This document shows positions 136 through 31,926 of a stretch of 36,216 bases of DNA, piece after piece; the first letter of the stretch is position 1, and each line of letters begins with the position of its first letter. Position numbers and translations under genes: made by a program. The notes under the pieces were generated by a model. The model saw only the letters and a program-made list of their open reading frames with translations. It searched no databases and had not been told where the DNA came from. The stretch comes from Stramenopiles sp. TOSAG23-2 (Eukaryota): NCBI GenBank assembly GCA_900128395.1, contig LT649339.1, positions 1-36,216 on the forward strand, written 5' to 3'.

Positions 136-2520
136 TTATAATAACCTTTTGACTACTGATCTTACAACTTTTGCATTATTAGGATCAAATTCCTCATCAT
201 TGTCAACTATATCCATTTTATTTTCAACATCTCCCATAATTGGTTCCATCTCCTTTATTTCTATTTGTTTCATTGCTGTCACAGGTGTATTTGATTTGTC
301 ATTTAACGTATCATTTCCAACCTTCTCTTCTTCTACTTCATTTCCTTTTTCGACTTTCTTTTTAACACTTTTGCTTCCTTTATCGATCTCCTCTTCTTCT
401 TCTTCGTCAACATATTTAATATGTTTCAAACAATCATTATTAATCTGTTTTAACACATTATCATCCAGACAATCTAACTTCGGATGTTGCATCAATTTAA
501 CTAAACGTTGAAATGATCCTGCTTGTCTTTCTGATACACTCATAACGTGATTTGGATGCGCTTCTTGATGCTCCATTGCACATTCTACGCAGAAATAAAC
601 TTTTTGACGTGTTGTTAACTTTCGCTTCTTTGTTGTCCCACGTTTATTATTTACTTCTTGGCATGTACTACAATGCACATAAATATTAACAAATTCTCTA
701 TCAGGGCAAAATGCTTCACAAAAAATAATTTTTGCGCCATCTAGTTCTTCATGAATACCTTCAACGTTTTTGATCGTGCATTTCTTACATATTTGATGTT
801 GTTCAATTTCGCCATTTAAAATCTCTTGTAATTTCGTTGTAATAAATAATTTCAACGCTGGGTCTGAATCGAAATCTTTCTTCTCGTTAATTATAGTTTC
901 ATATACATAATCGATCAAAAGCATTTTCATGGGTACAATATTATCCACTCGTTTCACTTCTTTGTTTATTTCATATCGCGTAAATGCAGTTTGAAGTTGT
1001 TCCAATGATCCCAATCCAAAGTTCCAAGATGTATTGATTGCATGGCCCATCGATCGAACCCAATGCTGGGTTCCACCTTTTAAAACAACGACATCACCAG
1101 GTTCCTGTATTCCAGTCATCACAGGAATTCCATGACTGCGCAAAAATTTCACTGATGGAAAATACCTCCCTTCATCTTCATAAATATCCACACCACACTC
1201 ACGATAAACTACCTCGCGTAATTTGATCGCATGTTCAGGTGCAACTGCATACCACATACTTGCACCATCCCCATGTGAACAATTTATAGAGCGAAATCTT
1301 AAATTTTCTTCATGCCCCCCAGTCCACACCCCTGGTACCTTTAAGTACATTTGCGGACTAGTCATCCCCTCAATATCTTGACGTACATGACGCAATATAT
1401 CATCTGCTTTTTGACACAATAAAAATCGCGGCAATACTGTTTCTAATAGCTTGCGATATTCTTTCCATTCTCGCATATCCACATTTACACAGTATTTCAC
1501 TAAGTCTTTCTTTTTCGCATTTTTACCTTTTTTCCCGATATTTATCGCATTGTTATCCATCATCATACCGTTATGATCACTACTTTGACCATCGATGCCA
1601 ACAGTACCATCATCTTTTACAATACAATGTTGCTTTTCAAATCCAATATCTCTTACACCAATGGCTTTAACCCGCTTTTTTTTAAATCTTTTCTTTATCT
1701 TTCTATTTTTTTCCAAAAGATTTGTGAAATATTTAAGAAACCTTTTTAATGGTTGCTTTTGATTTGTATGGTCGTCCAAGTTGAAACCCACATCTTTTGG
1801 ATTTTGTAAAAGAACATCAACCTCTTGAGTGCCATAATTTTTTATCATGCTATCAAAATTTTTCATTTGACTATTAATACTCTCAGGAAATAACTTTTTT
1901 AATATAACTATTGGATATTTTAAAAGTTCTTCCTTTTCTTCATCGGTAAATGTTGCTGGTTGAGAATTGTTTTGTAACTTGTTATTTTTACTATCCTCAT
2001 CTTTATCTTTATTATTGTTATCTGATTTACCTTTTTGATTTATTTTATCTTTATTAGCATTATCAATAGGATTTTTTGATGTTGTTGCACCAATATGCAT
2101 CGTTGGAATTGATAATATAACTCCAGGCTTATCACCAGGATAGAACACATTTCCAATTGTTGTATTTTTAACATTATCATGACGAAGTTCTGGTTGAAAT
2201 GCATTTGTGTTTGTATTAAGTCGTTTTGCCATTGTCTTATATTTTGTAGAAAGACTTGAAGAACCTTTAGTACTAGGATCAATAGACATACCGCCTTGTT
2301 TTAATATTTGATCTATTTTCATCTTTTTATGTATATTAGAGGCTTTTACAGCTATTATTTTATTTGTATTGTGTAGTTTAGCTGCAGGTTTTTTACTTTG
2401 TTTTTTTTTTTTAGATTCTTTCCCCTCTTCTTCCTCAGCAACAAAACGTTGTGGTTTTTTTCTAATTCGTTTGGTATTTTGAACTGGCCAATCATCTAAT
2501 CTATTCGAAATACCGGACAT
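136..2520 (-). CDS. JmjC-domain histone demethylase, KDM6 (UTX/JMJD3)-like, with C-terminal zinc-binding domain
   Basis: 794-aa ORF. QMYLKVPGVWTGGHEENLRFRSIN and QEPGDVVVLKGGTQHWVRSMG match the KDM6 JmjC core (HxE...H Fe ligands). It continues with IVPMKML and a Cys cluster (CEAFC...CSTC...CVEC) and has a Lys-rich NLS-like N-terminus. Confidence 0.85.
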   Translation of the reverse strand: MSGISNRLDDWPVQNTKRIRKKPQRFVAEEEEGKESKKKKQSKKPAAKLHNTNKIIAVKASNIHKKMKIDQILKQGGMSIDPSTKGSSSLSTKYKTMAKRLNTNTNAFQPELRHDNVKNTTIGNVFYPGDKPGVILSIPTMHIGATTSKNPIDNANKDKINQKGKSDNNNKDKDEDSKNNKLQNNSQPATFTDEEKEELLKYPIVILKKLFPESINSQMKNFDSMIKNYGTQEVDVLLQNPKDVGFNLDDHTNQKQPLKRFLKYFTNLLEKNRKIKKRFKKKRVKAIGVRDIGFEKQHCIVKDDGTVGIDGQSSDHNGMMMDNNAINIGKKGKNAKKKDLVKYCVNVDMREWKEYRKLLETVLPRFLLCQKADDILRHVRQDIEGMTSPQMYLKVPGVWTGGHEENLRFRSINCSHGDGASMWYAVAPEHAIKLREVVYRECGVDIYEDEGRYFPSVKFLRSHGIPVMTGIQEPGDVVVLKGGTQHWVRSMGHAINTSWNFGLGSLEQLQTAFTRYEINKEVKRVDNIVPMKMLLIDYVYETIINEKKDFDSDPALKLFITTKLQEILNGEIEQHQICKKCTIKNVEGIHEELDGAKIIFCEAFCPDREFVNIYVHCSTCQEVNNKRGTTKKRKLTTRQKVYFCVECAMEHQEAHPNHVMSVSERQAGSFQRLVKLMQHPKLDCLDDNVLKQINNDCLKHIKYVDEEEEEEIDKGSKSVKKKVEKGNEVEEEKVGNDTLNDKSNTPVTAMKQIEIKEMEPIMGDVENKMDIVDNDEEFDPNNAKVVRSVVKRLL

Positions 2521-3366
2521 GTTCGATCGTTTTTCTCTCTTTTTTCCTCCTCTCTGTGTATGTATATATTGTTAGAATCTTTGACTGAATGTAATGTTTG
2601 CCTTTTGTTATCTTTGGTGTTTTAATTTGTGATATATGTATGTATGTATGTTTGTATCTTATCTATTAGTCGTTTGATGTAGAACCACGCACATTTAGCG
2701 ATTATTATTGTTGATTTATTACTGTATTTTTTGCGATGTGCGATGTAGATGTGGTAATCTTCTGGTAATGTTAAATAATTTTGCCGATGTGTAAGTTCAC
2801 ATCACATCACATCACACCTGCGGATCCAATAGTATATCTATGCTATTTTTTAGATTTTTCTAGATTTCTAGATTTCTATATATATATCTTGTTATTTATG
2901 ATTTATGATTGATTGACACAGTGAAGAAAAGGTGTGCCCAAGGTTACAGTGCTATTTTCTATTTTATTACAGTATCGGCAATGGATGTATTCATATAGGA
3001 GCTTGTCGTCCTCGTATACCACCAGTTGGGTACACGTAGTATTATATTATATAATAGTCGTCTAATAACAATCGTAGTGCTAAGATTATTAAGATCTTCT
3101 CCTCCTCTGCGTTTTTTTATTACATGAGAGCTGTTGTTGTTTTTGCCACCTTTGCTGGTTTGCACTTTTCGTTTGTTTTTTTTGTATAATATTTCGTACC
3201 TGGTATTTTTTACCAAAAAAATTATTAGACTAATAAAATAATCTATTAGTCTATTTATATTATTCTTCTAGAATTAATTAGTTAAAAGTAATATACAACA
3301 ACAAATAAAGATATCATTTAATTCCAAAAACTTAAAGTTATAAATTATCCAAAAAACATATAAACA

Positions 3367-4572
3367 ATGGCTGATGAAAAAGAGACTGGTGTAACGTCAC
3401 TTGACAATAATTTATCCTTGCACTTATTTTCAAAAGATATATTGTTATCATATCATAACTATTTAAAATGGAAAGATATGTATAATTTTATACAAACATC
3501 AAACGTTGCATTGGGATATTTTAATGATTTAAATTTATGGAGAAAATCTTTGCGTAGAAAGTTATTGATAGAATCAATTCCACAATATTTAAATTGGCCA
3601 TTAAGAAGTAAATCAGAAATGATTGCAATACAAAAGAAAAAATCCGTACTATTAAAAAAATATCCTGGATACAAAAAATATATAAAAAAATTACAAACAG
3701 ACGAAGATGAAGTTGCTGGATTATATGAAATGTTTGGCCATAAAAAAGTAGGATGGCGCATTGATGTACAGCCAGATCCATTTGATTTAATTCATAATAA
3801 TGATCCTAGTGGCTATAATTTATCAAAAAGCAGCTTGATGAAACTCACGCCATTGTTGCAAGCTAAAGTAACATTTTATTATGCAAAAGGTATTAAAGAT
3901 TATGAAAATAGAAAATTTGAAGACTCTTTAAAAGCATTAAATATAGCTTTAGAAATAGCGCCAAAGCATGATTTAATACTTTGTAGATTAGGCGATACAT
4001 CGTATGCTTTGAGGTTAAAAGCTGAAGAGCTTGTCTCCGAAGATGAGGTTAAAAGTTATTATGAAGCAGCTTTGGAAATGAATCCATCCTCTTCAAGTGC
4101 ATATAACGGACTAGCTCTTTTTTCAAAATCAAAATCAAGATTTACTATTGGTGGTCGAAATCCAAATGAAGGCGTACCATTTTCCATAAGTTTCAATCGA
4201 TTATCCTTTCAAAGAGCTGCTTTGCTATTAGACCCATTCAATACCTATACCATTGTAAATTATTTCACGGCAATTAAAAACCCGTATGATATATTATATA
4301 AAAGGACTGCAGGTGGTACGGAAAAGTTGGTTTTTATTTATTCTCTTGTAATGCAAGCATTAAAATTGGCAGTAAGTTGGAATCCAAATTTATTTTATGC
4401 ACGTTTATCAATTGCTGATATGTTATCCCATAGTCGTCAATATGAAGGTGCATTAAAAGTATTGAAAGAACAACCTAATTGGGAAAACGTTGATGACTAT
4501 AGTCGTCGGGTGAATGTAATTGAAGGATTAATAGTAAGATTGGGGTTGGAAACATTGAATACGAGAAGATAA
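3367..4572 (+). CDS. F-box-like / TPR-repeat protein
   Basis: 401-aa ORF. The N-terminal LHLFSKDILLSYHNYLKWKDMYNF...DLNLWRKSL has F-box spacing. TPR-like helices follow: YYAKG...ALNIALEIAP, YYEAALEMNPSSSSAYNGLA, ALKLAVSWNP. Confidence 0.65.
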   Translation: MADEKETGVTSLDNNLSLHLFSKDILLSYHNYLKWKDMYNFIQTSNVALGYFNDLNLWRKSLRRKLLIESIPQYLNWPLRSKSEMIAIQKKKSVLLKKYPGYKKYIKKLQTDEDEVAGLYEMFGHKKVGWRIDVQPDPFDLIHNNDPSGYNLSKSSLMKLTPLLQAKVTFYYAKGIKDYENRKFEDSLKALNIALEIAPKHDLILCRLGDTSYALRLKAEELVSEDEVKSYYEAALEMNPSSSSAYNGLALFSKSKSRFTIGGRNPNEGVPFSISFNRLSFQRAALLLDPFNTYTIVNYFTAIKNPYDILYKRTAGGTEKLVFIYSLVMQALKLAVSWNPNLFYARLSIADMLSHSRQYEGALKVLKEQPNWENVDDYSRRVNVIEGLIVRLGLETLNTRR

Positions 4573-17546: not shown

Positions 17547-17745
17547 GTTTTCTGTTGTTTTTGAAAAATTTAAAAAAAATAATAATCGCTACAATAGAAA
17601 CCGTTAAATATATATAGATAATGTTTTCGAAATAATAGCTGTGTTAACATATATATACGAATGTATACAAAATACCACAAACAAACAACTATTAAACAGC
17701 AACAAAAAATATACAATACATATTACAAAAGACAATCACATAAAT

Positions 17746-19152
17746 ATGACATCAACTAAAAAATATTCTGCAGTTGAACGTGCTCTTGCCATTGGTAGAA
17801 AAAAATATGGTATACAACAAAGAGGAAGTAATAATAGTAACAACAAAGGTGATTATTCATTAAGTAATAGTAGCATCAATAACACACGCAGTAATATTGA
17901 TGATAATAATAATAATAATAATAGAAGAAGTAGAAGAAGAAGAAATTATAAACAACAAAACAATATTGACGATATGTTTATTAAATCAAGTTTTGGAAAC
18001 GATGAAAATTTAAATGTAATTGATAATGATACTATTAATTTTATATTTTCAAAAGAAAATTATAACAGTAATACACCTTCGAAAAAAATGATGGCAAATA
18101 ATACTTTGAAAGACAATGCGTTATTTGAAAATGCAACAAATACCAGCATACCTTTGCCAACATTCAAAGACATTGATAATAGAATTGATGATTTGTTTTC
18201 AGAAAATGCAATGTTTCTGAAAGAAAATTTTTCGAAAAGCCATGATGTATTTAACGATGCAAGAAATATATATGGAACTACTGTTGATGGATTACGCCCA
18301 AGTAATTATCATCGAGGTGTTGCTTCTGGTAGTCTGATGCCTGGCGGTAACAATAACCCATCAAACACGATGACGACGGCAACGACAACTGATTTGAATC
18401 ATATTGTAAATGATGAATATGATGAAAATGTTAATTATAAATTAAAACTTGCCAATTTAGTCGATTCTTTGTCTAGAGAAGTGGAAGTTTTGAAAAATAA
18501 TTCGATAGGTCCAACTATTCCAAAGATTGTATCTCCATCATCTATAAAAAATTCCCGTAGTAGTAGTAGTAGTACAAAAAATGGTATTATGAAAACGAAA
18601 ACAGTAGATAAATTGTATGAAACAAGTACAGGTTTAGTCATTACTGTACCAGTTGACGTAGTAGTAGATGATGTTGAACAATCTGATATACCGGTATTAC
18701 CATCATCTCAAAATAATATGATGATGTTTGTACCACCACCACCATCACACGTAACAGCATCCATGCTGCTATATAATGATGCGGAAATAACATTACAACA
18801 AACTGGCTTAGCCATAGAGCATCATAGAAATCATACATATCGTAAATATTTTGATGGGATGAAATTGTATTATATGATCCGAAAACATATCTTTTTAAGA
18901 ATGAAAAACAATATATTATCAAGACCATGTCGTAAATGGGAAGGAATTGGTGTTCCGTTTGAACAAAAAGCTATTTGCGCAGAGCGTGGACGAGACGCAA
19001 TGGCAAAAGATTATGTAAAGCAACGTTTGTTGAAGATTTCGTTTGCTAAATTAATGTTAAATGTACATGAAGGATATGAAGATTTTGTAATCAATGTATT
19101 GCCACCACCATTGTTAGAAACACCTCCAGGTACACCAAAAAGTATAAGGTAG
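17746..19152 (+). CDS. Hypothetical Asn-rich protein
   Basis: Long open frame with first ATG at 17746 (ORF track starts at GTG 17641). Mostly low-complexity, with a short coiled coil and a helical C-terminal part. No family recognised. Confidence 0.7.
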   Translation: MTSTKKYSAVERALAIGRKKYGIQQRGSNNSNNKGDYSLSNSSINNTRSNIDDNNNNNNRRSRRRRNYKQQNNIDDMFIKSSFGNDENLNVIDNDTINFIFSKENYNSNTPSKKMMANNTLKDNALFENATNTSIPLPTFKDIDNRIDDLFSENAMFLKENFSKSHDVFNDARNIYGTTVDGLRPSNYHRGVASGSLMPGGNNNPSNTMTTATTTDLNHIVNDEYDENVNYKLKLANLVDSLSREVEVLKNNSIGPTIPKIVSPSSIKNSRSSSSSTKNGIMKTKTVDKLYETSTGLVITVPVDVVVDDVEQSDIPVLPSSQNNMMMFVPPPPSHVTASMLLYNDAEITLQQTGLAIEHHRNHTYRKYFDGMKLYYMIRKHIFLRMKNNILSRPCRKWEGIGVPFEQKAICAERGRDAMAKDYVKQRLLKISFAKLMLNVHEGYEDFVINVLPPPLLETPPGTPKSIR

Positions 19153-21797: not shown

Positions 21798-24700
21798 ATG
21801 ACGGATGCAAAATATGAATTAACTACTAGTACTAATAATAATAAGGTAACTATTAACATTCCTTCATCTAGTTTCATAGCAAAATATCTTGTTGAAGGCA
21901 TGACTTGCTCATCTTGTGTTAATACTGTTGAAACTGGTGTGAAAAAAGGGCACACAATTAATTTAAAGCGTGTCAATGTTAATTTGTTAGAAGATACTAT
22001 GGAAGTTACATTTTCTGAAGATGATTTAGAAAAGGCGAAAGTGTATGGTGAAGGTATTGTAGATACGGTGGAATGTTTAGGGTTTGACTGTAAATTATTG
22101 AACCTTGATATTATCCCTTTAACTACGTTCAAAGCAAAATATCTTGTTGAAGGCATGACTTGCTCATCTTGTGTTAATACTGTTGAAACTGGTGTGAAAA
22201 AAGGGCACACAATTAATTTAAAGCGTGTTAATGTTAATTTGTTAGAAGATACTATGGAAGTTACATTTTCTGAAGATGATTTAGAAAAGGCGAAAGTGTA
22301 TGGTGAAGGTATTGTAGATACGGTGGAATGTTTAGGGTTTGACTGTAAATTATTGGAAGTAACACAACTTCATGAAGGTAAACAAAGAAAACTGCTAACT
22401 TGTTTATTGAATTTTGAAATGGAAAAATCTATATCCAATACCGTCCTGGTAAATTTAACAAATGAGATTATTACCTACCTTTTGAACGTAAATGAAAAAT
22501 ATGAAGATAGTATTAGTAAAGTTAGTTCCACTACAACAGATCAGAATCAAAAAAATAATAACAAGATGAATGTGAATGAAATTGAATTATTTATAGAATT
22601 CAATGATGAAATTATTGGGATTCGTACGATATGTGAAGAATATATAGATCCTGTGCTGAAGAAATTCAAGGTTATAAAATACGATGTAGCTGCTGCAACT
22701 GGGACATTAAGTACATTGCAAAGTCGTAAAAATAATCAAGTCAATCAATGGAAAAAGTCATTGTATTTTAGTTTAATATTTACCGCCCCATGCTTTTTAA
22801 TATCTATGGTTCTACCATCAATTCATCCATCCATTAAAATGGCATTTATGTCAAGCGTATTTGATGAGATAAATTTGCATTGGGGTGCTTTATTAATGTG
22901 GATATTAGCAACACCAGTTCAATTCATCTCGGGTCAACTATTTTACGTTGAAGCATATCATGGTATGTTGCGACGAAATTATGGTATGTCGTTTCTAATT
23001 GCATTAGGGACAAGTGCTGCATATTTTTACTCTGCATTTGCTGTTATATATAATATGCTGTATACAAAGCCAGGTGTCCATACCAAATCTCACCAAGGGG
23101 CGCATTTTTTTGAAACAAGTGCTATGCTAATTACATTTGTATTACTTGGGAAATTTATGGAAGCTACTGCAAAGAAGGAAACATCAAGTGCCCTTGCCGC
23201 GTTGATGAAGTTATCGGCTAGCACAGCTCGATTAGTGGTACAAAAAAATACAAAAAATGACAATGTTACAACAATTACAGATGAGGATATCGATGAAATC
23301 AAAGATATCGATATCGTTATGTTACAACGTGGTGATATTATTAAAGTTTTGCCTGGTGACACATTGCCTGCAGATGGGATTGTAATTAAAGGACGATCGA
23401 CTGTAAATGAATCGATGTTAACCGGCGAACCAATGCCTGTGCAAAAAAATGTTGGTGACTTAGTGTCTGGATCAACATCCAATGTAGATGGTACATTATT
23501 TATCTCCGTAACTGAGACTGGTGCAAATACAACATTGTCAAATATTATTAATCTTGTGCAAGATGCACAAACAAAAAAACCACCGATACAAATATTTGCC
23601 GATCGTATAAGTGGCATATTTGCTCCTATTGTTGCTTCGATTTCTTTGCTTACTTTCATTGTTTGGATTATTTTAACATCTGCCAATGTTGTACCAAAAG
23701 AATGGTATCCATATGGCGAAAGCAACTTTGTTATGTCTTTAACCTTTAGTATTGCTGTATTAGTTATTGCATGTCCATGCGCGTTGGGTCTTGCAACACC
23801 CACAGCTATTATGGTTGGCACAAGTGTTGGTGCTAAGTTAGGAATATTAGTAAAGAGTGGTGATGCACTCGAGACGGCACATAATGTAACGGATGTAATA
23901 TTTGACAAAACTGGGACTTTGACATCGGGTACGCCATCTTGCACAGATATAGTATTATTGAATGATAAAGTTCCGCTTAATATGAAAAAGAAAACGGTAG
24001 AAGAACAAGATGATACAGGAAATGATTTTTTACGAATATCACAACATGATTTATTATATTTTGTTGGATGTGCTGAAAAAGGTAGCGAGCATCCACTTGC
24101 ACAAGCTATTGTAAAAAAAGCAACTAGTGTCAAGAATGTGAAGCCGTTAAAAGAGCCTGGTGCATTCAAAGCAGACCCAGGCCGTGGTATATGCGCAGAT
24201 GTTGATGGACATCAAGTTTTAATTGGTAATCGTCAGTATATGGAAGAAAAAGGCTCGATATTTACAACCAACGCGGAACGGACAGAAAATTGCATGCAAA
24301 CGATGGAAAAAAAAGGGAAAACAAGTGTAATAGTGTCCATTAATAATGTTGTAGTTGGTGTATTGGGTATTTACGACGAAGCAAAACAAGACGCGGCCGT
24401 TGCTTTAGCTGGTCTACGTGCTATGAATCTAAATGTATGGATGTTAACTGGTGATAATCGAAGAACAGCGGAAGCAATTGCATTTGAATTAGGAATACCT
24501 AAAGAACAAATTGTAGCTGAAGTTTTGCCAGGAGAAAAATCTGAAAAAGTTGTTGAATTACAAGAGAAAGGGAAAATTGTTGCCATGGTGGGGGATGGAG
24601 TAAATGATTCTCCTGCCTTAGCTCAAGCAAACTTAGGCATAGCAATTGGTGCAGGTGCTGATGTCGCAGTAGAAGCGGCTGACTTAGTGCTGGTGAAATC

Positions 24701-25316
24701 GAGATTAGTGGATGTAATCACTGCAATTGATTTATCTCGTGTCACTTACCAACGTATACGTTTAAATATGTTTTGGGCTTTAGGTTATAACACATTAGGA
24801 ATACCGATTGCTGCTGGTGTTTTATTTCCACTTATAAAAGTAGTTTTGCCGCCTGAAGTTGCTGGACTAGCAATGGCAATGTCGTCAGTCTCCGTTGTAA
24901 TTTCATCTATTTTATTGCGTAATTATAAACCTCCAAAAATTGAATCAAGTTATGGCCGAGAAGTTCGACAAGGTACATTAGGAATTGAATCAGTAAAAAT
25001 GGAATTGGAGAGTGAAAATAATGGTGGTGGTGGTGGTATTGCCTATCATATTGATCCCGGGTGTATGATGGCATATGGTGGCGCATGTACATGTGCTGCT
25101 GAATTATGTACATGTGCAGATTGTGCTATTCATAAAGGTGGGGGTCGCTACAATAGTAAGAAGAAAAGTGGTGGTGAGAAGGATGATGATGAAGAAATAA
25201 AATTGTACAGTGCCGGTTGTTCCATGCAATGGGGTGAGAAGTGTAACTGTGATCCAAATAAATGTGCTTGCGCTGATTGTATGGAACATAAATTTGAGGT
25301 TGGAAAAAAAGCGTAA
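21798..25316 (+). CDS. Copper-transporting P1B-1 ATPase (ATP7/CopA/RAN1 family)
   Basis: Two HMA domains (GMTCSSC), TGEP actuator, CPCALGLATP, DKTGT, SEHP, GDGVNDSPAL, and TM ligands YN and MAMSS. It also has a Cys-rich C-terminal tail. Confidence 0.97.
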   Translation: MTDAKYELTTSTNNNKVTINIPSSSFIAKYLVEGMTCSSCVNTVETGVKKGHTINLKRVNVNLLEDTMEVTFSEDDLEKAKVYGEGIVDTVECLGFDCKLLNLDIIPLTTFKAKYLVEGMTCSSCVNTVETGVKKGHTINLKRVNVNLLEDTMEVTFSEDDLEKAKVYGEGIVDTVECLGFDCKLLEVTQLHEGKQRKLLTCLLNFEMEKSISNTVLVNLTNEIITYLLNVNEKYEDSISKVSSTTTDQNQKNNNKMNVNEIELFIEFNDEIIGIRTICEEYIDPVLKKFKVIKYDVAAATGTLSTLQSRKNNQVNQWKKSLYFSLIFTAPCFLISMVLPSIHPSIKMAFMSSVFDEINLHWGALLMWILATPVQFISGQLFYVEAYHGMLRRNYGMSFLIALGTSAAYFYSAFAVIYNMLYTKPGVHTKSHQGAHFFETSAMLITFVLLGKFMEATAKKETSSALAALMKLSASTARLVVQKNTKNDNVTTITDEDIDEIKDIDIVMLQRGDIIKVLPGDTLPADGIVIKGRSTVNESMLTGEPMPVQKNVGDLVSGSTSNVDGTLFISVTETGANTTLSNIINLVQDAQTKKPPIQIFADRISGIFAPIVASISLLTFIVWIILTSANVVPKEWYPYGESNFVMSLTFSIAVLVIACPCALGLATPTAIMVGTSVGAKLGILVKSGDALETAHNVTDVIFDKTGTLTSGTPSCTDIVLLNDKVPLNMKKKTVEEQDDTGNDFLRISQHDLLYFVGCAEKGSEHPLAQAIVKKATSVKNVKPLKEPGAFKADPGRGICADVDGHQVLIGNRQYMEEKGSIFTTNAERTENCMQTMEKKGKTSVIVSINNVVVGVLGIYDEAKQDAAVALAGLRAMNLNVWMLTGDNRRTAEAIAFELGIPKEQIVAEVLPGEKSEKVVELQEKGKIVAMVGDGVNDSPALAQANLGIAIGAGADVAVEAADLVLVKSRLVDVITAIDLSRVTYQRIRLNMFWALGYNTLGIPIAAGVLFPLIKVVLPPEVAGLAMAMSSVSVVISSILLRNYKPPKIESSYGREVRQGTLGIESVKMELESENNGGGGGIAYHIDPGCMMAYGGACTCAAELCTCADCAIHKGGGRYNSKKKSGGEKDDDEEIKLYSAGCSMQWGEKCNCDPNKCACADCMEHKFEVGKKA
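21878..22355 (+). repeat. Near-identical intragenic duplication of the HMA domain (255-bp period)
   Basis: 21878-22100 versus 22133-22355: 223 bp with one visible difference (C21974/T22229, synonymous GTC/GTT). Confidence 0.95.
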
Positions 25317-25459
25317 AATGTAAAAGAGTCGTACGATCTGTAAGAAAAACTTTTTTTATATGATATATAATAAGGAGAGCGTAATTAAAAAACATAATTA
25401 AAACATTTAAAAAACATATATGTGTGTAAAAGAATACGAGTACATTAAAATCACATTTT

Positions 25460-25877
25460 CTACATGACTATACAAAAGCTTTCATCACTAAGCGATACAT
25501 CTACTACTCTTTTGAAATCTGAATTGTGATGTTTTCTATGCAATTTTAACTGCTTAAAGTCTTCTTTTAACACACTTTGACGACGTCCTTTTGCACCGTC
25601 TTCAACAGCAACAGACATGGAGAATTGTGAATGGTTAAACATCAAACATACAAGTAAAATCCCAATCTTCCAATGCTTTGTATAAGTTATCATAGTCATC
25701 AATATTGTTATTGTCTTTATCGTTGTAAGATATTGGAAACCAAGCTAGAATTTTACCTTCCTCTACAGCCCGATCTAAATTTGCTTTCCCTGCTCCCATT
25801 GGTATTTGACCTTCCTGGTCATTAAACTTTATCTTATAGTACGACTTCTTTCTTCCTAATCCATTATGATCTTCCAA
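25460..25877 (-). pseudogene. Possible degraded gene fragment (two overlapping protein-like frames)
   Basis: The frame LEDHNGLGRKKSYYKIKF...LEDWDFTCMFDV* switches near 25640 to FNHSQFSMSVAVEDGAKGRRQSVLKEDF...VM*. Composition is coding-like, and the upstream frame starts at TTG rather than ATG. Confidence 0.4.
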
Positions 25878-28267: not shown

Positions 28268-28767
28268 GGTACACCTATTTTAATATTGTTCAACAATGAC
28301 TATTGTATTATATATATATATATATATATATCAATGTCTGGATGTCTGTACATGTCGTATTCCAGTATTCCTCTCTCTCTCTCTCTCTCTGATTTAAGTG
28401 ATCTTAGATCATCGTAATTTCCGGCACTGAATTCACCCTCTCCTCTCCTCTCGTCGTTTATTCGATTTTATTCTCTAATTTAAATTCACCCTGTACTACC
28501 ACGGTGGTATATTCACGTACTATTATTCACGCTAAGATTTAAGGATATTAATATTCCCTATCTGCGTCGTCAGCCAAAAGCAAGTTCTGGACTTTTTTCG
28601 ACTTTCGATATATTATTATTTTGTATAAAAAAATAGTTGAATTTAAAATAAAAAAATTGAATTTATGAAAATGTTGATATAGATACACACTAATGTAACA
28701 CGTTAGAAAAGCCAACAGAATATACATCTAGATAATAAAAAAAGTTCAATACGTATCAAACACAACG

Positions 28768-31700
28768 ATGTCATCACAAAGTGGATCAAGCGTTCTTAGT
28801 AAACCACCACCGAAAAAGAAAAAAAAGAAATCAAAATCAAAACGCACTTCTCCTAATAGTATTGGTGATAATGATACAAATAACAAATCAGTTTCCAAGG
28901 AAAATAATAACCAAGAAAATAGTGCATTGCCTCAAGTAGCTCTAGAACAAAGAAAACATATTAGTTTGATCGGTAGAACTGTGCGAACAAGCGGAACGCC
29001 TTTAATGGAATATATAAAATTATCAAATGAAAATGGTATGTTATTGATTCGACAATGTCCATGTAAGTTGTTAGTATATTTATTAGATAATAGTACAAAC
29101 AAGATCTCCGTTGATGAAATAAGTAAAAAAAAGAAAAGTAAAAAAAAAGACAATAATAGCACAAAGAATAACAATACATGGTTACATATATCGACTATAT
29201 GTTTTACTTCTGATATCGTTACGATAAATGTTGGTAGCTTTCTTCAAAATACGCTTAAAGCAAATAAAATTTTGATCGGAACCTACGATGGTGAAATATT
29301 CTATATAGATGCTGATAAAATAGGTAGTGATAATATTAGTTACAAGTATCTTGATGTATCAAAGGAACAAAATAAAATTTCAAAATCGCTTGGTATTATA
29401 CGTGGAATTGTCAATTGCAATTTTTTATATAATGGTAATCAAGAGGCTGATAGCCAAGCCATTTTAATCACAAGTTTATTAGAACCTATGTATTTATGTG
29501 AGTTTAAGAATGAAAATGGTATCGAGATATTCAAAAAAAATCTTATTCCACAAAACAATGTCGATTCAATCGTATCAACAACATATATAATGAGCAGTAG
29601 TAGCAATCCATCTTTTTTTTCTGCACTTTTTGGCCCTAACATGGCGTTATCACGAGGCAATAATTCAATAGCCATACAAGGTTATTTAGATGGCTCACTT
29701 CGATACGTGTTATTACAATCTGATTATATAATGAACAACGATAGCAGTGGTGGGATATCTATCAATCGCAATGTTGCCTCTATACATGGTCTACTTTTAC
29801 ATATGCCGGATAACGAAACGATTTTGAACATATTACCAATTTATTCATTTTTTGATGATGATGTCACCGATAATAATAACAGTAACCAAACTACTAATAC
29901 AATAAAAGGCTTAGTAATTATTGGAAAGCACGGTACCATTAAAATTATTAGTTATTTTAATCAGTCCCAAGCTCATCAACACATGGATGTAGATAATGAA
30001 AATGTATTAAACAATGCAAATTTAGTGAAATGTGGTAATCATGCAGTTGTTGAAACTTGGCCAAATAATATTGGCAACTCAATATCATGCGCATGCATAG
30101 TTAATGGATACCTAGTATGCATATCAAATCGAAAAACATTAGTCATGCCATTGTTACGTTTGCAATTATTACTTTCCGTAAATAATATTACAAATGTACA
30201 ATTGCCACTTGCTCGTAATGTTGTTTTCTTGCAACCGTTAGAAATATATTCAAATACATTCATTGCGTTAACATCGCGTGGTCTATTATATGAATTTACA
30301 ATGCCTAGTAACAACAATATACAAATATTGAAACGCATTGAAAATTTCGGAGCCAAGCATTCACAATGCACTCGCATAAGTGCAGATGCAGATTCGGAAA
30401 CAAGGGTGAAAGGATTATTAGAACAGTTGTCAGAAATATCAACAAAAGAATACATTTCAAAAGAAGTTAGCAATATTTATACAAAGCAATTAAGTGTTTT
30501 GTCTGAAATGCTGCATTGGATCGTAGAATTTAATCACTTGTTCGTTTCCGGTAAAGCGTTTGCATCTACTATTACAATTGATCAAAATTTGATAGGTCAA
30601 GTATCCACAGTACACACCCTTTGTTTAACGCTTACGCCTTTTTCTCGTAACTCTAATATATACTTTCCAATATCTGATACATGGCAAATTGTTGTAAAAA
30701 TAAAACATTCCCAGAGTGGCGCATTAAATTATATTGAAACAAAATCTATATTTTTGAAAGATCTTGCAGTTAGAAAACCTAATGATAATAGTGGGCAAGA
30801 ACAGCGTATATGGAGATTTCCAATAGAACTGGAGAGTATTGAACCCCTTGAAATTTCTGTTTCGTTATGCACTATGTTAAGTCATTCAAAAACAATTCGT
30901 GTGGATGATGATGGCAACGCAAAAAATACTAGTGATGATACTGGACAGTCTATTTCACTTTTAAAAGATCAAGATGCTATCTTTTTACCAATATCTTCAC
31001 ACCTTCTAGATATACTTGATTTTGCCGGTCTACACAATACCAGAGTAACGTATTTGAATAATTTAAATCGCGTTCTAAAGCAGTCTATAAACAATATTTC
31101 CTTGACCAGTGGCAATAATGGTATAATTAGTGTTGTTGATGGGGAAAATTTAAATATCAATGAACATGGTCCGATTACACAAGTTGGTTTTGGGACACGG
31201 GCAAAGATAAATATTGTAATTCATCCTGACATATACAACAGCAGTATCGATGATGATCGTAGTAGTCGTGATGAGAGTGCAGGCAAATTATTTCGATTGA
31301 AGAACATTCTTGGGAAGCTTATCGAAAGGCCAGGCCATTTTTCAAAACATTTTACATGGAGACAGAATAAAAATAGCAAACAGATTGAAGTAACTGGGTC
31401 ATTAGGCAGAGGGCATGGTATTTCTTTATTATCATCATGGTGCGAAGAAAGTAACTCTGAAGCGACAACAAGTAAAACAAACACAATGATGATGCCTACC
31501 ACTTCTGCATCTAGTAGTAAATCAATTAAAAATATATTGTCTGTTGAAATTTTATGCGAACACCCATTAGATTTACCATTAATTCGCGAGGCTTTAATAC
31601 GACGTGGTATGAAATATAATTGCCATATTAATATAAGTAAAAATAGTGGCGAAGGTAGCAATGATAATGTAACAAATGATGGTGTTGGTTCTAATCCATC

Positions 31701-31926
31701 TTCTGTTTCGATAGATTTAGAAAAAGATCTATTTGAAATAGAAAATGAATTATTGATTTTACAAAAAGAACAGCATGGATTGGAAAGTAATTGTATTGAT
31801 CCTAATAGCAATTTATCTGGTGTAAAATCAGCGCCACCATTTAATATTGCACTATACAGTGCTAGGACAAGTGAATTGGCGAAGAAAGTTGCAAAATTAT
31901 ATTTGAAATTGAGAAAAGAGGATTAA
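28768..31926 (+). CDS. Large protein, putative Fanconi anemia core complex-associated protein 100 (FAAP100)-like
   Basis: 1052-aa ORF. FFSALFGPNMAL...IAIQGYLDGSL, GLVIIGKHGTI, FIALTSRGLL and the coiled coil RVKGLLEQLSEIS occur in the same order as recalled FAAP100 motifs (LFGxxxxL...GLPDGQL, LVAFGHHGRM, KIKELLSGIGNIS). Confidence 0.6.
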   Translation: MSSQSGSSVLSKPPPKKKKKKSKSKRTSPNSIGDNDTNNKSVSKENNNQENSALPQVALEQRKHISLIGRTVRTSGTPLMEYIKLSNENGMLLIRQCPCKLLVYLLDNSTNKISVDEISKKKKSKKKDNNSTKNNNTWLHISTICFTSDIVTINVGSFLQNTLKANKILIGTYDGEIFYIDADKIGSDNISYKYLDVSKEQNKISKSLGIIRGIVNCNFLYNGNQEADSQAILITSLLEPMYLCEFKNENGIEIFKKNLIPQNNVDSIVSTTYIMSSSSNPSFFSALFGPNMALSRGNNSIAIQGYLDGSLRYVLLQSDYIMNNDSSGGISINRNVASIHGLLLHMPDNETILNILPIYSFFDDDVTDNNNSNQTTNTIKGLVIIGKHGTIKIISYFNQSQAHQHMDVDNENVLNNANLVKCGNHAVVETWPNNIGNSISCACIVNGYLVCISNRKTLVMPLLRLQLLLSVNNITNVQLPLARNVVFLQPLEIYSNTFIALTSRGLLYEFTMPSNNNIQILKRIENFGAKHSQCTRISADADSETRVKGLLEQLSEISTKEYISKEVSNIYTKQLSVLSEMLHWIVEFNHLFVSGKAFASTITIDQNLIGQVSTVHTLCLTLTPFSRNSNIYFPISDTWQIVVKIKHSQSGALNYIETKSIFLKDLAVRKPNDNSGQEQRIWRFPIELESIEPLEISVSLCTMLSHSKTIRVDDDGNAKNTSDDTGQSISLLKDQDAIFLPISSHLLDILDFAGLHNTRVTYLNNLNRVLKQSINNISLTSGNNGIISVVDGENLNINEHGPITQVGFGTRAKINIVIHPDIYNSSIDDDRSSRDESAGKLFRLKNILGKLIERPGHFSKHFTWRQNKNSKQIEVTGSLGRGHGISLLSSWCEESNSEATTSKTNTMMMPTTSASSSKSIKNILSVEILCEHPLDLPLIREALIRRGMKYNCHINISKNSGEGSNDNVTNDGVGSNPSSVSIDLEKDLFEIENELLILQKEQHGLESNCIDPNSNLSGVKSAPPFNIALYSARTSELAKKVAKLYLKLRKED

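Follow-up and report, generated by a model that had tools for sequence, protein, structure and literature searches.

A conserved tail of two cysteine-rich units on a clade of marine stramenopile-type copper pumps: a candidate copper-sensing domain

The stretch of DNA analysed here (the window, 36,216 nucleotides) is contig LT649339.1 of Stramenopiles sp. TOSAG23-2, and its forward strand encodes a P1B-1 Cu(I) ATPase at 21798-25316; the features of this gene described below all lie on that strand. The coding sequence is a single intron-free open reading frame (ORF) of 1172 aa plus stop (Met 21798, stop 25314-25316), predicted to be a complete copper pump, and the subject of this report is its C-terminal tail, which carries two cysteine-rich units. 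A sequence-only reading of the window had described these units as repeats of identical spacing, had likened them to the copper-binding motifs of the fungal transcription factor Mac1 and had taken the tail for a built-in Cu(I) sensor or metallothionein-like buffer, the best candidate in the window for an undescribed system.

The two 24-aa repeats were reproduced exactly by translation of the pump reading frame, within one ORF: 25062-25133 encodes CMMAYGGACTCAAELCTCADCAIH and 25218-25289 encodes CSMQWGEKCNCDPNKCACADCMEH, both with the spacing C-x7-C-x-C-x4-C-x-C-x2-C-x2-H. Translation, alignment and regular-expression searches extended the conserved blocks slightly upstream, so that unit 1, DPG-C-x-M-x3-G-x-C-x-C-x4-C-x-C-x2-C-x2-H, occupies 25053-25133 (residues 1086-1112) and unit 2, SAG-C-x-MQWG-x2-C-x-C-D-P-x2-C-x-C-x2-C-x2-H, occupies 25209-25289 (residues 1138-1164). 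Each unit thus contains six Cys, one His and an invariant Met. Between them lies a linker rich in Gly, Lys, Asp and Glu (25134-25208, residues 1113-1137), which varies in length and sequence between lineages; in this pump the Gly/charged linker joining the units, also as described earlier, reads KGGGRYNSKKKSGGEKDDDEEIKLYSAG. The inner motif CxCx4CxCx2Cx2H starts at residues 1097 and 1149, and a search of the six-frame translation of the whole window with C.C.{4}C.C..C..H returned these two sites only. Shuffling the residues of the whole protein 200,000 times never produced the inner pattern. When the Cys-rich 90-aa tail alone was shuffled as often, 13 of the 200,000 products had one copy of it and none had two. 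These results exclude a chance origin of the tail pattern.

The identification of the gene as a copper ATPase was borne out by Pfam domains, signature motifs and fold matches. The Pfam domains on the protein were HMA (2.5e-15, two stretches), E1-E2_ATPase (1.9e-50) and Hydrolase (HAD; 2.2e-30). The P-type core motifs located by regular expression were complete, with TGEP at residue 542, the DKTGT phosphorylation site at 23904-23918 (residue 703), SEHP at residue 763 and GDGVND at residue 932. The CPC transport site lies at 23772-23780 (residue 659), YN(x4)P of the second-last membrane helix at 24786-24806 (residue 997; model helix 971-1006) and MxxSS of the last membrane helix at 24873-24887 (residues 1026-1030; model helix 1019-1042), a combination that is the signature of Cu(I)/Ag(I) pumps of the P1B-1 type. 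Modelled at full length by AlphaFold2 with 56 aligned homologues, the pump had a mean predicted local distance difference test score (pLDDT) of 82.8, and the top Foldseek matches of the model were ATP7B (7si6, E 6.6e-58), rice HMA4 (8q73, TM-score to the target 0.80) and LpCopA (4bbj, 3rfu).

The position of MxxSS and of the model helix that contains it places both units after the last membrane helix, in agreement with the sequence-only reading. Eight membrane helices and a cytosolic N-terminus, taken from the established P1B topology and the model helices, put the tail on the cytosolic side. Between the last helix and unit 1 lies a juxtamembrane segment, RNYKPPKIESSYGREVRQGTLGIESV, at 24918-24995 (residues 1041-1066; defined by alignment), which is conserved throughout the tail-bearing clade, the diatom type included, with predicted beta strands at residues 1047-1052 and 1063-1069 and mean pLDDT values of 90, 55 and 77 for the ten-residue blocks 1041-1050, 1051-1060 and 1061-1070. 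Downstream of unit 2, the stop codon (25314-25316) is followed by a short 3' end, the two together spanning 25314-25370 as bounded by the ends of RNA-library contigs; the RNA fold at the 3' end of the gene gave no signal (z-score 0.5).

The tail is a translated part of the pump and is present in RNA libraries. The stretch 23800-25400 was found in 20 of 24 public runs among those listed, from 11 studies, all marine metagenomes and metatranscriptomes, and including six RNA libraries. The sequence-only reading had named transcripts without the tail as evidence that would count against it. The RNA contigs do include the tail: those of four runs, drawn from three studies and mapped to 22400-25700, covered pump body and tail continuously (X8, 22845-25350; X13, 23780-25318; X17, oligo-dT, 24049-25370; X19, polyA, 24621-25205). 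No splice joint was reported in these contigs across pump body and tail, and their sole indel was a TA insertion at 25340, past the stop codon. Three contigs end 2-54 bases past the stop codon (X13 at 25318, X8 at 25350 and X17 at 25370), which is a weak hint of the transcript end only. Two tail variants were seen in the RNA-library contigs, a synonymous C>T at 25058 and an A>G at 25258 that gives N1154S by codon arithmetic, both at non-ligand positions, and the variants noted by eye among cluster members (D->G, N->S, A->T, V->A) were likewise at non-ligand positions. Transcript-derived relatives also carry the tail on a pump product (P0008 and P0009 from the source 'merc', and P0061 from MMETSP), as do genomic ORFs of other lineages, namely L003 (single ORF, 284-4360) and L002 (ORF 2313-4328). 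The L002 relative is apparently split over two ORFs (127-2265 and 2313-4328), unlike the intron-free pump of the window.

An explanation in which the tail has no function, whether as Cys-rich sequence of low complexity that arose by chance, as an artefact of read-through or as an assembly error, had nothing in its favour and can be dismissed as extremely improbable given the negative shuffles, the conservation described next, the RNA-library contigs that include the tail and its presence within ORFs at three independent loci (the window, L003 and L002).

Conservation of the tail was assessed by searches with the tail alone. Among pump-length proteins, a tail-restricted search returned a 97%-identical protein (P0002) and one from a second species (P0003), which has 71% identity over the whole protein, 62% within the tail, and keeps every Cys and His. 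When 1.84 billion representative proteins were searched by HMMER with the 90 residues of the tail, only 14 matched at E<=0.001: in seven, the tail was preceded by P-type ATPase sequence (P0005, P0007, P0008, P0009, P0011, P0013 and P0015), five were short tail fragments (P0004, P0006, P0010, P0012 and P0016) and two were small two-unit proteins without pump sequence (P0014 and P0017). A profile of nine tails (alignment A2) run against longer proteins gave 19 matches at E<=0.01 among 7990 scored candidates; 16 of these had ATPase Pfam domains, P0011 and P0058 had visible pump sequence, and P0060 looks chimeric. The last of these (241 aa, with a DOPA 4,5-dioxygenase-like N-terminus, PF08883, followed by the tail) would place the module on another kind of protein, but was rejected as probably a chimeric contig, because its tail begins mid-unit and is identical to that of the pump P0055.

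In alignment A2, whose members are 36-69% identical to the window tail, all 12 Cys, the unit-1 His and both Gly-Cys-x-Met starts were invariant in nine of nine tails, as were the Gly six residues on, the unit-2 MQWG and the Asp after CxC. The earlier proposal of selection on the ligands is therefore upheld, and the orthologues keep the ligands that the sequence-only reading had asked them to keep. A wider set of 22 non-redundant tails was tabulated, leaving out near-identical cluster members, the fragments P0004, P0006, P0010, P0012 and P0016, the duplicates P0050, P0052 and P0053, P0058, P0060 and the diatom-type tails. The Cys columns of this table are at 100% by construction, the units being defined by regular expression, and the independent evidence for them is the MAFFT alignments; the unit-1 His was present in 22 of 22 tails, as was the Met at C+2, and at non-ligand columns the commonest residue averaged 54-57%. 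Profiles of unit 1 and unit 2 aligned with 99.1% probability, a figure helped by the shared regular expression. Each unit type is orthologous across lineages, which indicates that the duplication of the unit is old.

Besides the pumps, two Cys units without pump sequence occur in small marine-metagenome proteins, P0014 (161 aa), P0017 (188 aa) and P0049 (251 aa), the latter two with x3 rather than x4 between the CxC pairs. All three lie on short contigs and may represent free-standing metallothionein-like or chaperone-like relatives of the tail.

To determine which pumps carry the tail, the best 120 whole-pump matches were inspected. Eighteen carried one unit or more within their last 230 residues; besides these, P0167 had a variant unit and P0087 a Cys-rich remnant. 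The carriers were environmental marine protists, one MMETSP transcript and the diatoms Stephanocyclus and Cyclotella, and the close pump relatives were all from marine metagenomes and metatranscriptomes. The nearest named pumps, at 37-38% identity, are diatom entries in NCBI labelled 'hypothetical protein' (P0071, Stephanocyclus meneghinianus, Thalassiosirales; P0072, Cyclotella cryptica). The tail is therefore not peculiar to this gene, as it is common to the whole pump clade, including diatom proteins already in NCBI, and the diatom tails follow the same plan as that of the window. The diatom-type juxtamembrane segment is conserved as Y-(K/R/Q)-P-P ... (Y/W)-G-(R/K) ... G-x-L-G-(I/L)-E, diatom-type unit 1 ends in an exact CxCx4CxCx2Cx2H and diatom-type unit 2 opens P-G-C-x3-W-G-x2-C-x-C. 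A hidden Markov model of the unit built from window-type tails detected the diatom tails at 3e-5 to 5e-4, and the same model detected none among plant, oomycete and Asgard pumps. In the oomycete (P0084, P0086, P0093, P0106), Arabidopsis HMA5 (P0128) and Asgard (P0074) pumps examined, the protein ends 31-61 residues past MxxSS with no Cys motifs, and the juxtamembrane segment was absent from these tails.

Scans with only one or two peptide patterns each gave 18 pattern matches and no relatives among prokaryotes (one genome each, 185,579 species), and 12 pattern matches and no relatives among IMG/VR viral contigs. A scan of JGI metagenomes confirmed at least three loci.

Trees were inferred from 44 pumps and 945 columns with a 70% column filter; columns of the tail, which have residues in no more than half of the sequences, fall outside the trees. 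In the FastTree result, all 22 tail-bearing pumps lay to one side of a branch whose SH-like support was 99, and P0087, labelled tail-less in that analysis, nested inside the tail-bearing group. A quick IQ-TREE analysis (LG+G4), with P0087 counted as tail-bearing, gave SH-aLRT support of 95 and a single label change, which none of 500 label shuffles equalled. The pump of the window grouped with the diatom-type (stramenopile) pumps. Both methods were quick ones that inferred no root, and the trees are compatible with, without proving, a single origin of the tail. Judged from these comparisons, the tail is a feature of one eukaryotic Cu-pump clade of marine stramenopile type, comprising diatoms and their relatives.

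The tail itself matched no catalogued family. For its 118 aa no Pfam family (2025 copy) was found at E<=1, including the profiles of the Zn-cluster CXC modules (tesmin/TSO1 CRC, MSL2 CXC and pre-SET), a search of PDB sequences at E<=10 gave 0 matches, and the best score in the ESM Atlas was 0.76 to an unnamed cluster, under the usable range, with no usable match to a named cluster. No copper-fist family was found in the Pfam scan of the whole pump protein, the N-terminus of which consists of HMA domains. AlphaFold2 modelling of the isolated tail from nine sequences gave a pLDDT of 46.3. In the full-length model the Cys units reached 68-78, a rise which may only reflect the deeper alignment, and linker residues 1115-1133 stayed below 50. 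The low score of the isolated tail fits a fold that would need metal.

For comparison with known systems, Arabidopsis HMA2 and HMA4 have C-terminal Cys/His tails, Archaeoglobus CopA carries a C-terminal HMA domain and metallothioneins are free-standing small proteins. The closest likeness in spacing is to Mac1, Cuf1 and GRISEA, which have two copies of CxCx4CxCx2Cx2H near the C-terminus, as in the window tail (PMC4992176, PMC3811678, PMC6354809). The inner spacing of the pump units is identical to the formula published for Mac1 REP-I and REP-II (PMC4992176, PMC3811678), and to this extent the description 'Mac1-type' is apt. In other respects it does not hold: the Mac1 REPs are reported with five Cys and one His per motif (PMC6354809), whereas the pump unit has a sixth conserved Cys, a Gly-Cys-x-Met start with its invariant Met and, in unit 2, MQWG. 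Moreover, Mac1, Cuf1 and GRISEA are nuclear DNA-binding proteins with an N-terminal copper-fist, which consists of a Zn module and (R/K)GRP, and the pump, having no copper-fist domain, is not a member of the Mac1 family.

The pump core, its signatures and its N-terminal HMA domains are shared with ATP7A/ATP7B, HMA5/RAN1, rice HMA4 and Ccc2. In pumps of the ATP7A/ATP7B type the terminal metal-binding domains regulate activity or autoinhibition, and trafficking; they differ from the tail in being N-terminal ferredoxin-like HMA domains with one CxxC each, and those of ATP7B and HMA4 are described as autoinhibitory (PMC10973460). More broadly, terminal metal-binding domains of P1B pumps are reported to act in autoinhibition or as metal-sensing degrons (PMC10973460, PMC10654040). 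Yeast Pca1 is an example of the latter, with a non-HMA Cys-rich N-terminal cytosolic extension that binds the metal transported and serves as a Cd sensor and degron controlling the abundance or activity of the pump (PMC10654040); Pca1 and HMA2/HMA4 are Cd/Zn pumps with non-repetitive extensions that contain no C-x7-CxCx4CxCx2Cx2H unit. Archaeoglobus CopA resembles the pump of the window in having a metal-binding domain past the last membrane helix (an 'MBD+1' in the naming scheme of PMC10973460) and differs in that this domain has an HMA fold with a single CxxC rather than a cluster-type Cys-rich unit. The Cys-cluster domain of Drosophila MTF-1 and the fungal Cu-metallothioneins provide a further parallel, as short CxC-rich peptides that fold cooperatively around a Cu4-S6 cage and can protect yeast from Cu (PMC2396432), with other spacing and in another protein context. 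Membership of the metallothioneins is not indicated for the tail, as its units are fused to a 1172-aa pump and match no Pfam family. Diatom 'CTP' pumps are mentioned as Cu exporters (PMC9853397). A full-text search of a literature collection that mostly excludes subscription journals found no account of a copper pump whose C-terminus bears a Cys-rich or Mac1-like tail, and the string CXCX4CXCX2C returned only fungal Mac1 papers. P1B pumps with a terminal metal-binding extension are thus already known, and this clade-specific, apparently cluster-type C-terminal domain seems to have been previously uncatalogued.

The interpretation that we regard as probable, by a modest measure, is that the tail is a cytosolic metal-cluster domain which would hold a polynuclear Cu(I)-thiolate in each unit and act as a built-in copper sensor of the pump. 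The tail as a conserved, translated C-terminal extension, present in RNA libraries and restricted to one pump clade, is an observation; the bound metal, the cluster and the regulatory effect are what we infer, largely by analogy. The working model is taken from the Mac1-type motifs, which bind Cu(I) as polynuclear clusters with a Cu-dependent intramolecular interaction: the two Cys regions of Mac1 bound eight Cu in vitro, and Cu promoted the interaction (PMC3811678). Under the proposed mechanism, the tail would lie on the cytosolic side adjoining the N-terminal HMA domains and the A, P and N domains, and each unit would be unfolded without metal. Each would then fold, in a cooperative manner, on a polynuclear Cu(I)-thiolate cluster like the Cu4-L6 clusters of Mac1, Ace1, Amt1 and Drosophila MTF-1; cluster formation would shift how the tail sits against the pump, and activity, stability or trafficking could in this way be set by cytosolic copper.

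Several observations weigh against this sensor interpretation. In Aspergillus, Mac1 could do without its REP motifs under Cu starvation (PMC6354809), so that the Mac1 analogy gives no guarantee of a sensing role. Zn(II) could be bound by a Cys6His site just as well. The second unit is the less constant of the two: its His is at C+3 in 13 of 18 tails and displaced in five, with a Cys or His within six residues, and diatom-type tails have x8 before CxC and a unit 2 that is shorter-spaced and without Met. The closest sister group of the window pump (P0015, P0062 and P0065; 54-56% identity) ends after unit 1, which shows that unit 2 can be lost. One of 13 same-species calls reaching the tail, among those listed, is frameshifted after unit 1, in the linker (P0022), and three calls of a P0003-like lineage (P0010, P0012 and P0058) break within or near unit 2, at different places; these out-of-frame copies may be sequencing errors or signs of unit-2 decay. 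Finally, RNA libraries can carry DNA, and the contigs show neither strand nor transcript ends.

A more specific form of the sensor interpretation can be put forward tentatively. It would make the tail a chaperone-independent ultrasensitive switch, in which all-or-none loading of Cu(I)4 in each unit folds the tail and releases or imposes autoinhibition or re-routing, and it would have the tail arise in marine stramenopiles independently of fungi, converging on Mac1 spacing. This possibility is considered doubtful as a whole, the sensing role being the part held with more confidence.

The best-surviving alternative, though a rather unlikely one, is that the units serve as a buffer or hand-over platform, a tethered metallothionein-like Cu(I) store near the entry site that passes Cu to an HMA or membrane site and partly replaces a soluble chaperone. 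The pump has only one or two HMA domains, and the existence of free-standing two-unit proteins (P0014, and P0017/P0049) suggests that the module may work as a soluble Cu-binding protein; the contigs of P0014 and P0017 are, however, short, and these genes may be incomplete. Two clusters per pump would also amount to a very small storage capacity, and strict conservation at non-ligand positions (G, M, MQWG and D-P), together with the juxtamembrane segment, points to specific contacts rather than bulk chelation.

Less likely still is a structural zinc domain, in which the units would bind Zn(II) (for example as a binuclear Zn2Cys6-like site or a knuckle) and dock adaptor, trafficking or oligomerization partners independently of copper. 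CxC-rich modules of six to nine Cys commonly bind Zn clusters (tesmin/MSL2 CXC, pre-SET), a unit-terminal His is typical of Zn sites, and the units do reach moderate pLDDT (68-78) in the full-length model with its deeper alignment. Set against this, the tail has no match to a Pfam Zn module even at E<=1, the module occurs almost only on Cu(I) pumps, and the invariant Met beside the first Cys would, on coordination chemistry, be a typical ligand of Cu(I) and not of Zn. The inner spacing is, in addition, that published for the Cu-binding Mac1 motifs. A report on Zn and Cd complexes of 'AMT1/MAC1 Cys/His-rich domains' (PMC9472267) was considered as evidence for zinc and set aside as having no bearing, because its peptides are N-terminal (residues 10-28) and not the REP motifs.

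That the units are true homologues of the fungal Mac1/Cuf1 REP domain, moved onto the pump by domain shuffling or transfer, is very unlikely. The inner CxCx4CxCx2Cx2H is identical and present in two copies as in Mac1, and the x3 variant of the free-standing P0017 recurs, by published residue numbers, in Aspergillus Mac1 (PMC6354809). No transcription factor or fungal protein was found in any tail search, however, the pump has no copper-fist domain, and the sixth Cys, GC-x-M and MQWG lie outside the published REP formula. Cu4-S6 clusters form cooperatively and are documented, as are Cu4 sensor domains, to have emerged in the absence of sequence homology (PMC2396432), which makes convergence with Mac1 a reasonable default.

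If the sensor interpretation is right, it would bear on copper-pump regulation more generally. The way in which metal-binding domains control transport by Cu pumps is a matter of continuing debate (PMC10973460, PMC10654040). To our knowledge, every well-studied case relies on HMA folds that have one Cu site each, and cooperative binding of several Cu(I) by a cluster-type domain would be a different, switch-like input to the pump. The carriers of the tail are diatoms and abundant uncultured marine protists, organisms for which copper is limiting, in iron uptake and electron transport, as well as toxic. The switch reading, if true, would define an undescribed class of P1B regulatory domain with a bearing on the ocean copper quotas of diatoms and their relatives, and the tail is a clean candidate for a copper-sensing motif reached convergently by a fungal transcription factor and a protist transporter. 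It is short and modular, and therefore easy to test.

At the other end of the pump, a tandem repeat of 255 bp (21873-22355; 1.9 copies, 99% matches) yields two identical N-terminal HMA domains, with GMTCSSC located by regular expression at 21897-21917 and 22152-22172 (residues 34 and 119). Public assemblies of the same species contain a one-HMA form (1087 aa; P0002, P0019, P0020 and P0025) besides the two-HMA form (1172 aa) of P0024, P0026 and the pump of the window, and the difference could come from polymorphism in the population or from short-read assemblies that collapsed the repeat. A single HMA domain is present in P0003, the closest orthologue, and the sister clade has two diverged ones. 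At 22395-22700 (residues ~200-300), directly before the first membrane helix, the model predicts a third beta-alpha-beta-beta-alpha-beta domain without CxxC, which resembles the structural 'MBD-1' of eukaryotic Cu pumps discussed in PMC10973460.

A retrieval signal at the extreme C-terminus was also considered. The di-lysine rule calls for lysines at -3/-4 or -3/-5, and the candidate in ...GKKA was rejected, its lysines being at -2/-3.

Counted from stop to stop over both strands, the window as a whole contains 18 ORFs that reach 200 aa, of which 15 were scanned. Its G+C content is 29-36% in 2-kb steps, and its long uninterrupted ORFs are densely packed. Two forward-strand ORFs, at 17608-19152 (514 aa, Asn-rich) and 28732-31926 (1064 aa), had no Pfam family at E<=0.001. 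The neighbours of the pump include an SDHB-like Fe-S subunit, a mitochondrial carrier, Pus10, a thiolase, a cyclophilin-WD40 protein, a JmjC protein and an HpcH-family aldolase; because these are ordinary eukaryotic nuclear genes, a giant-virus origin, which the low G+C and the intron-free genes had prompted, was rejected.

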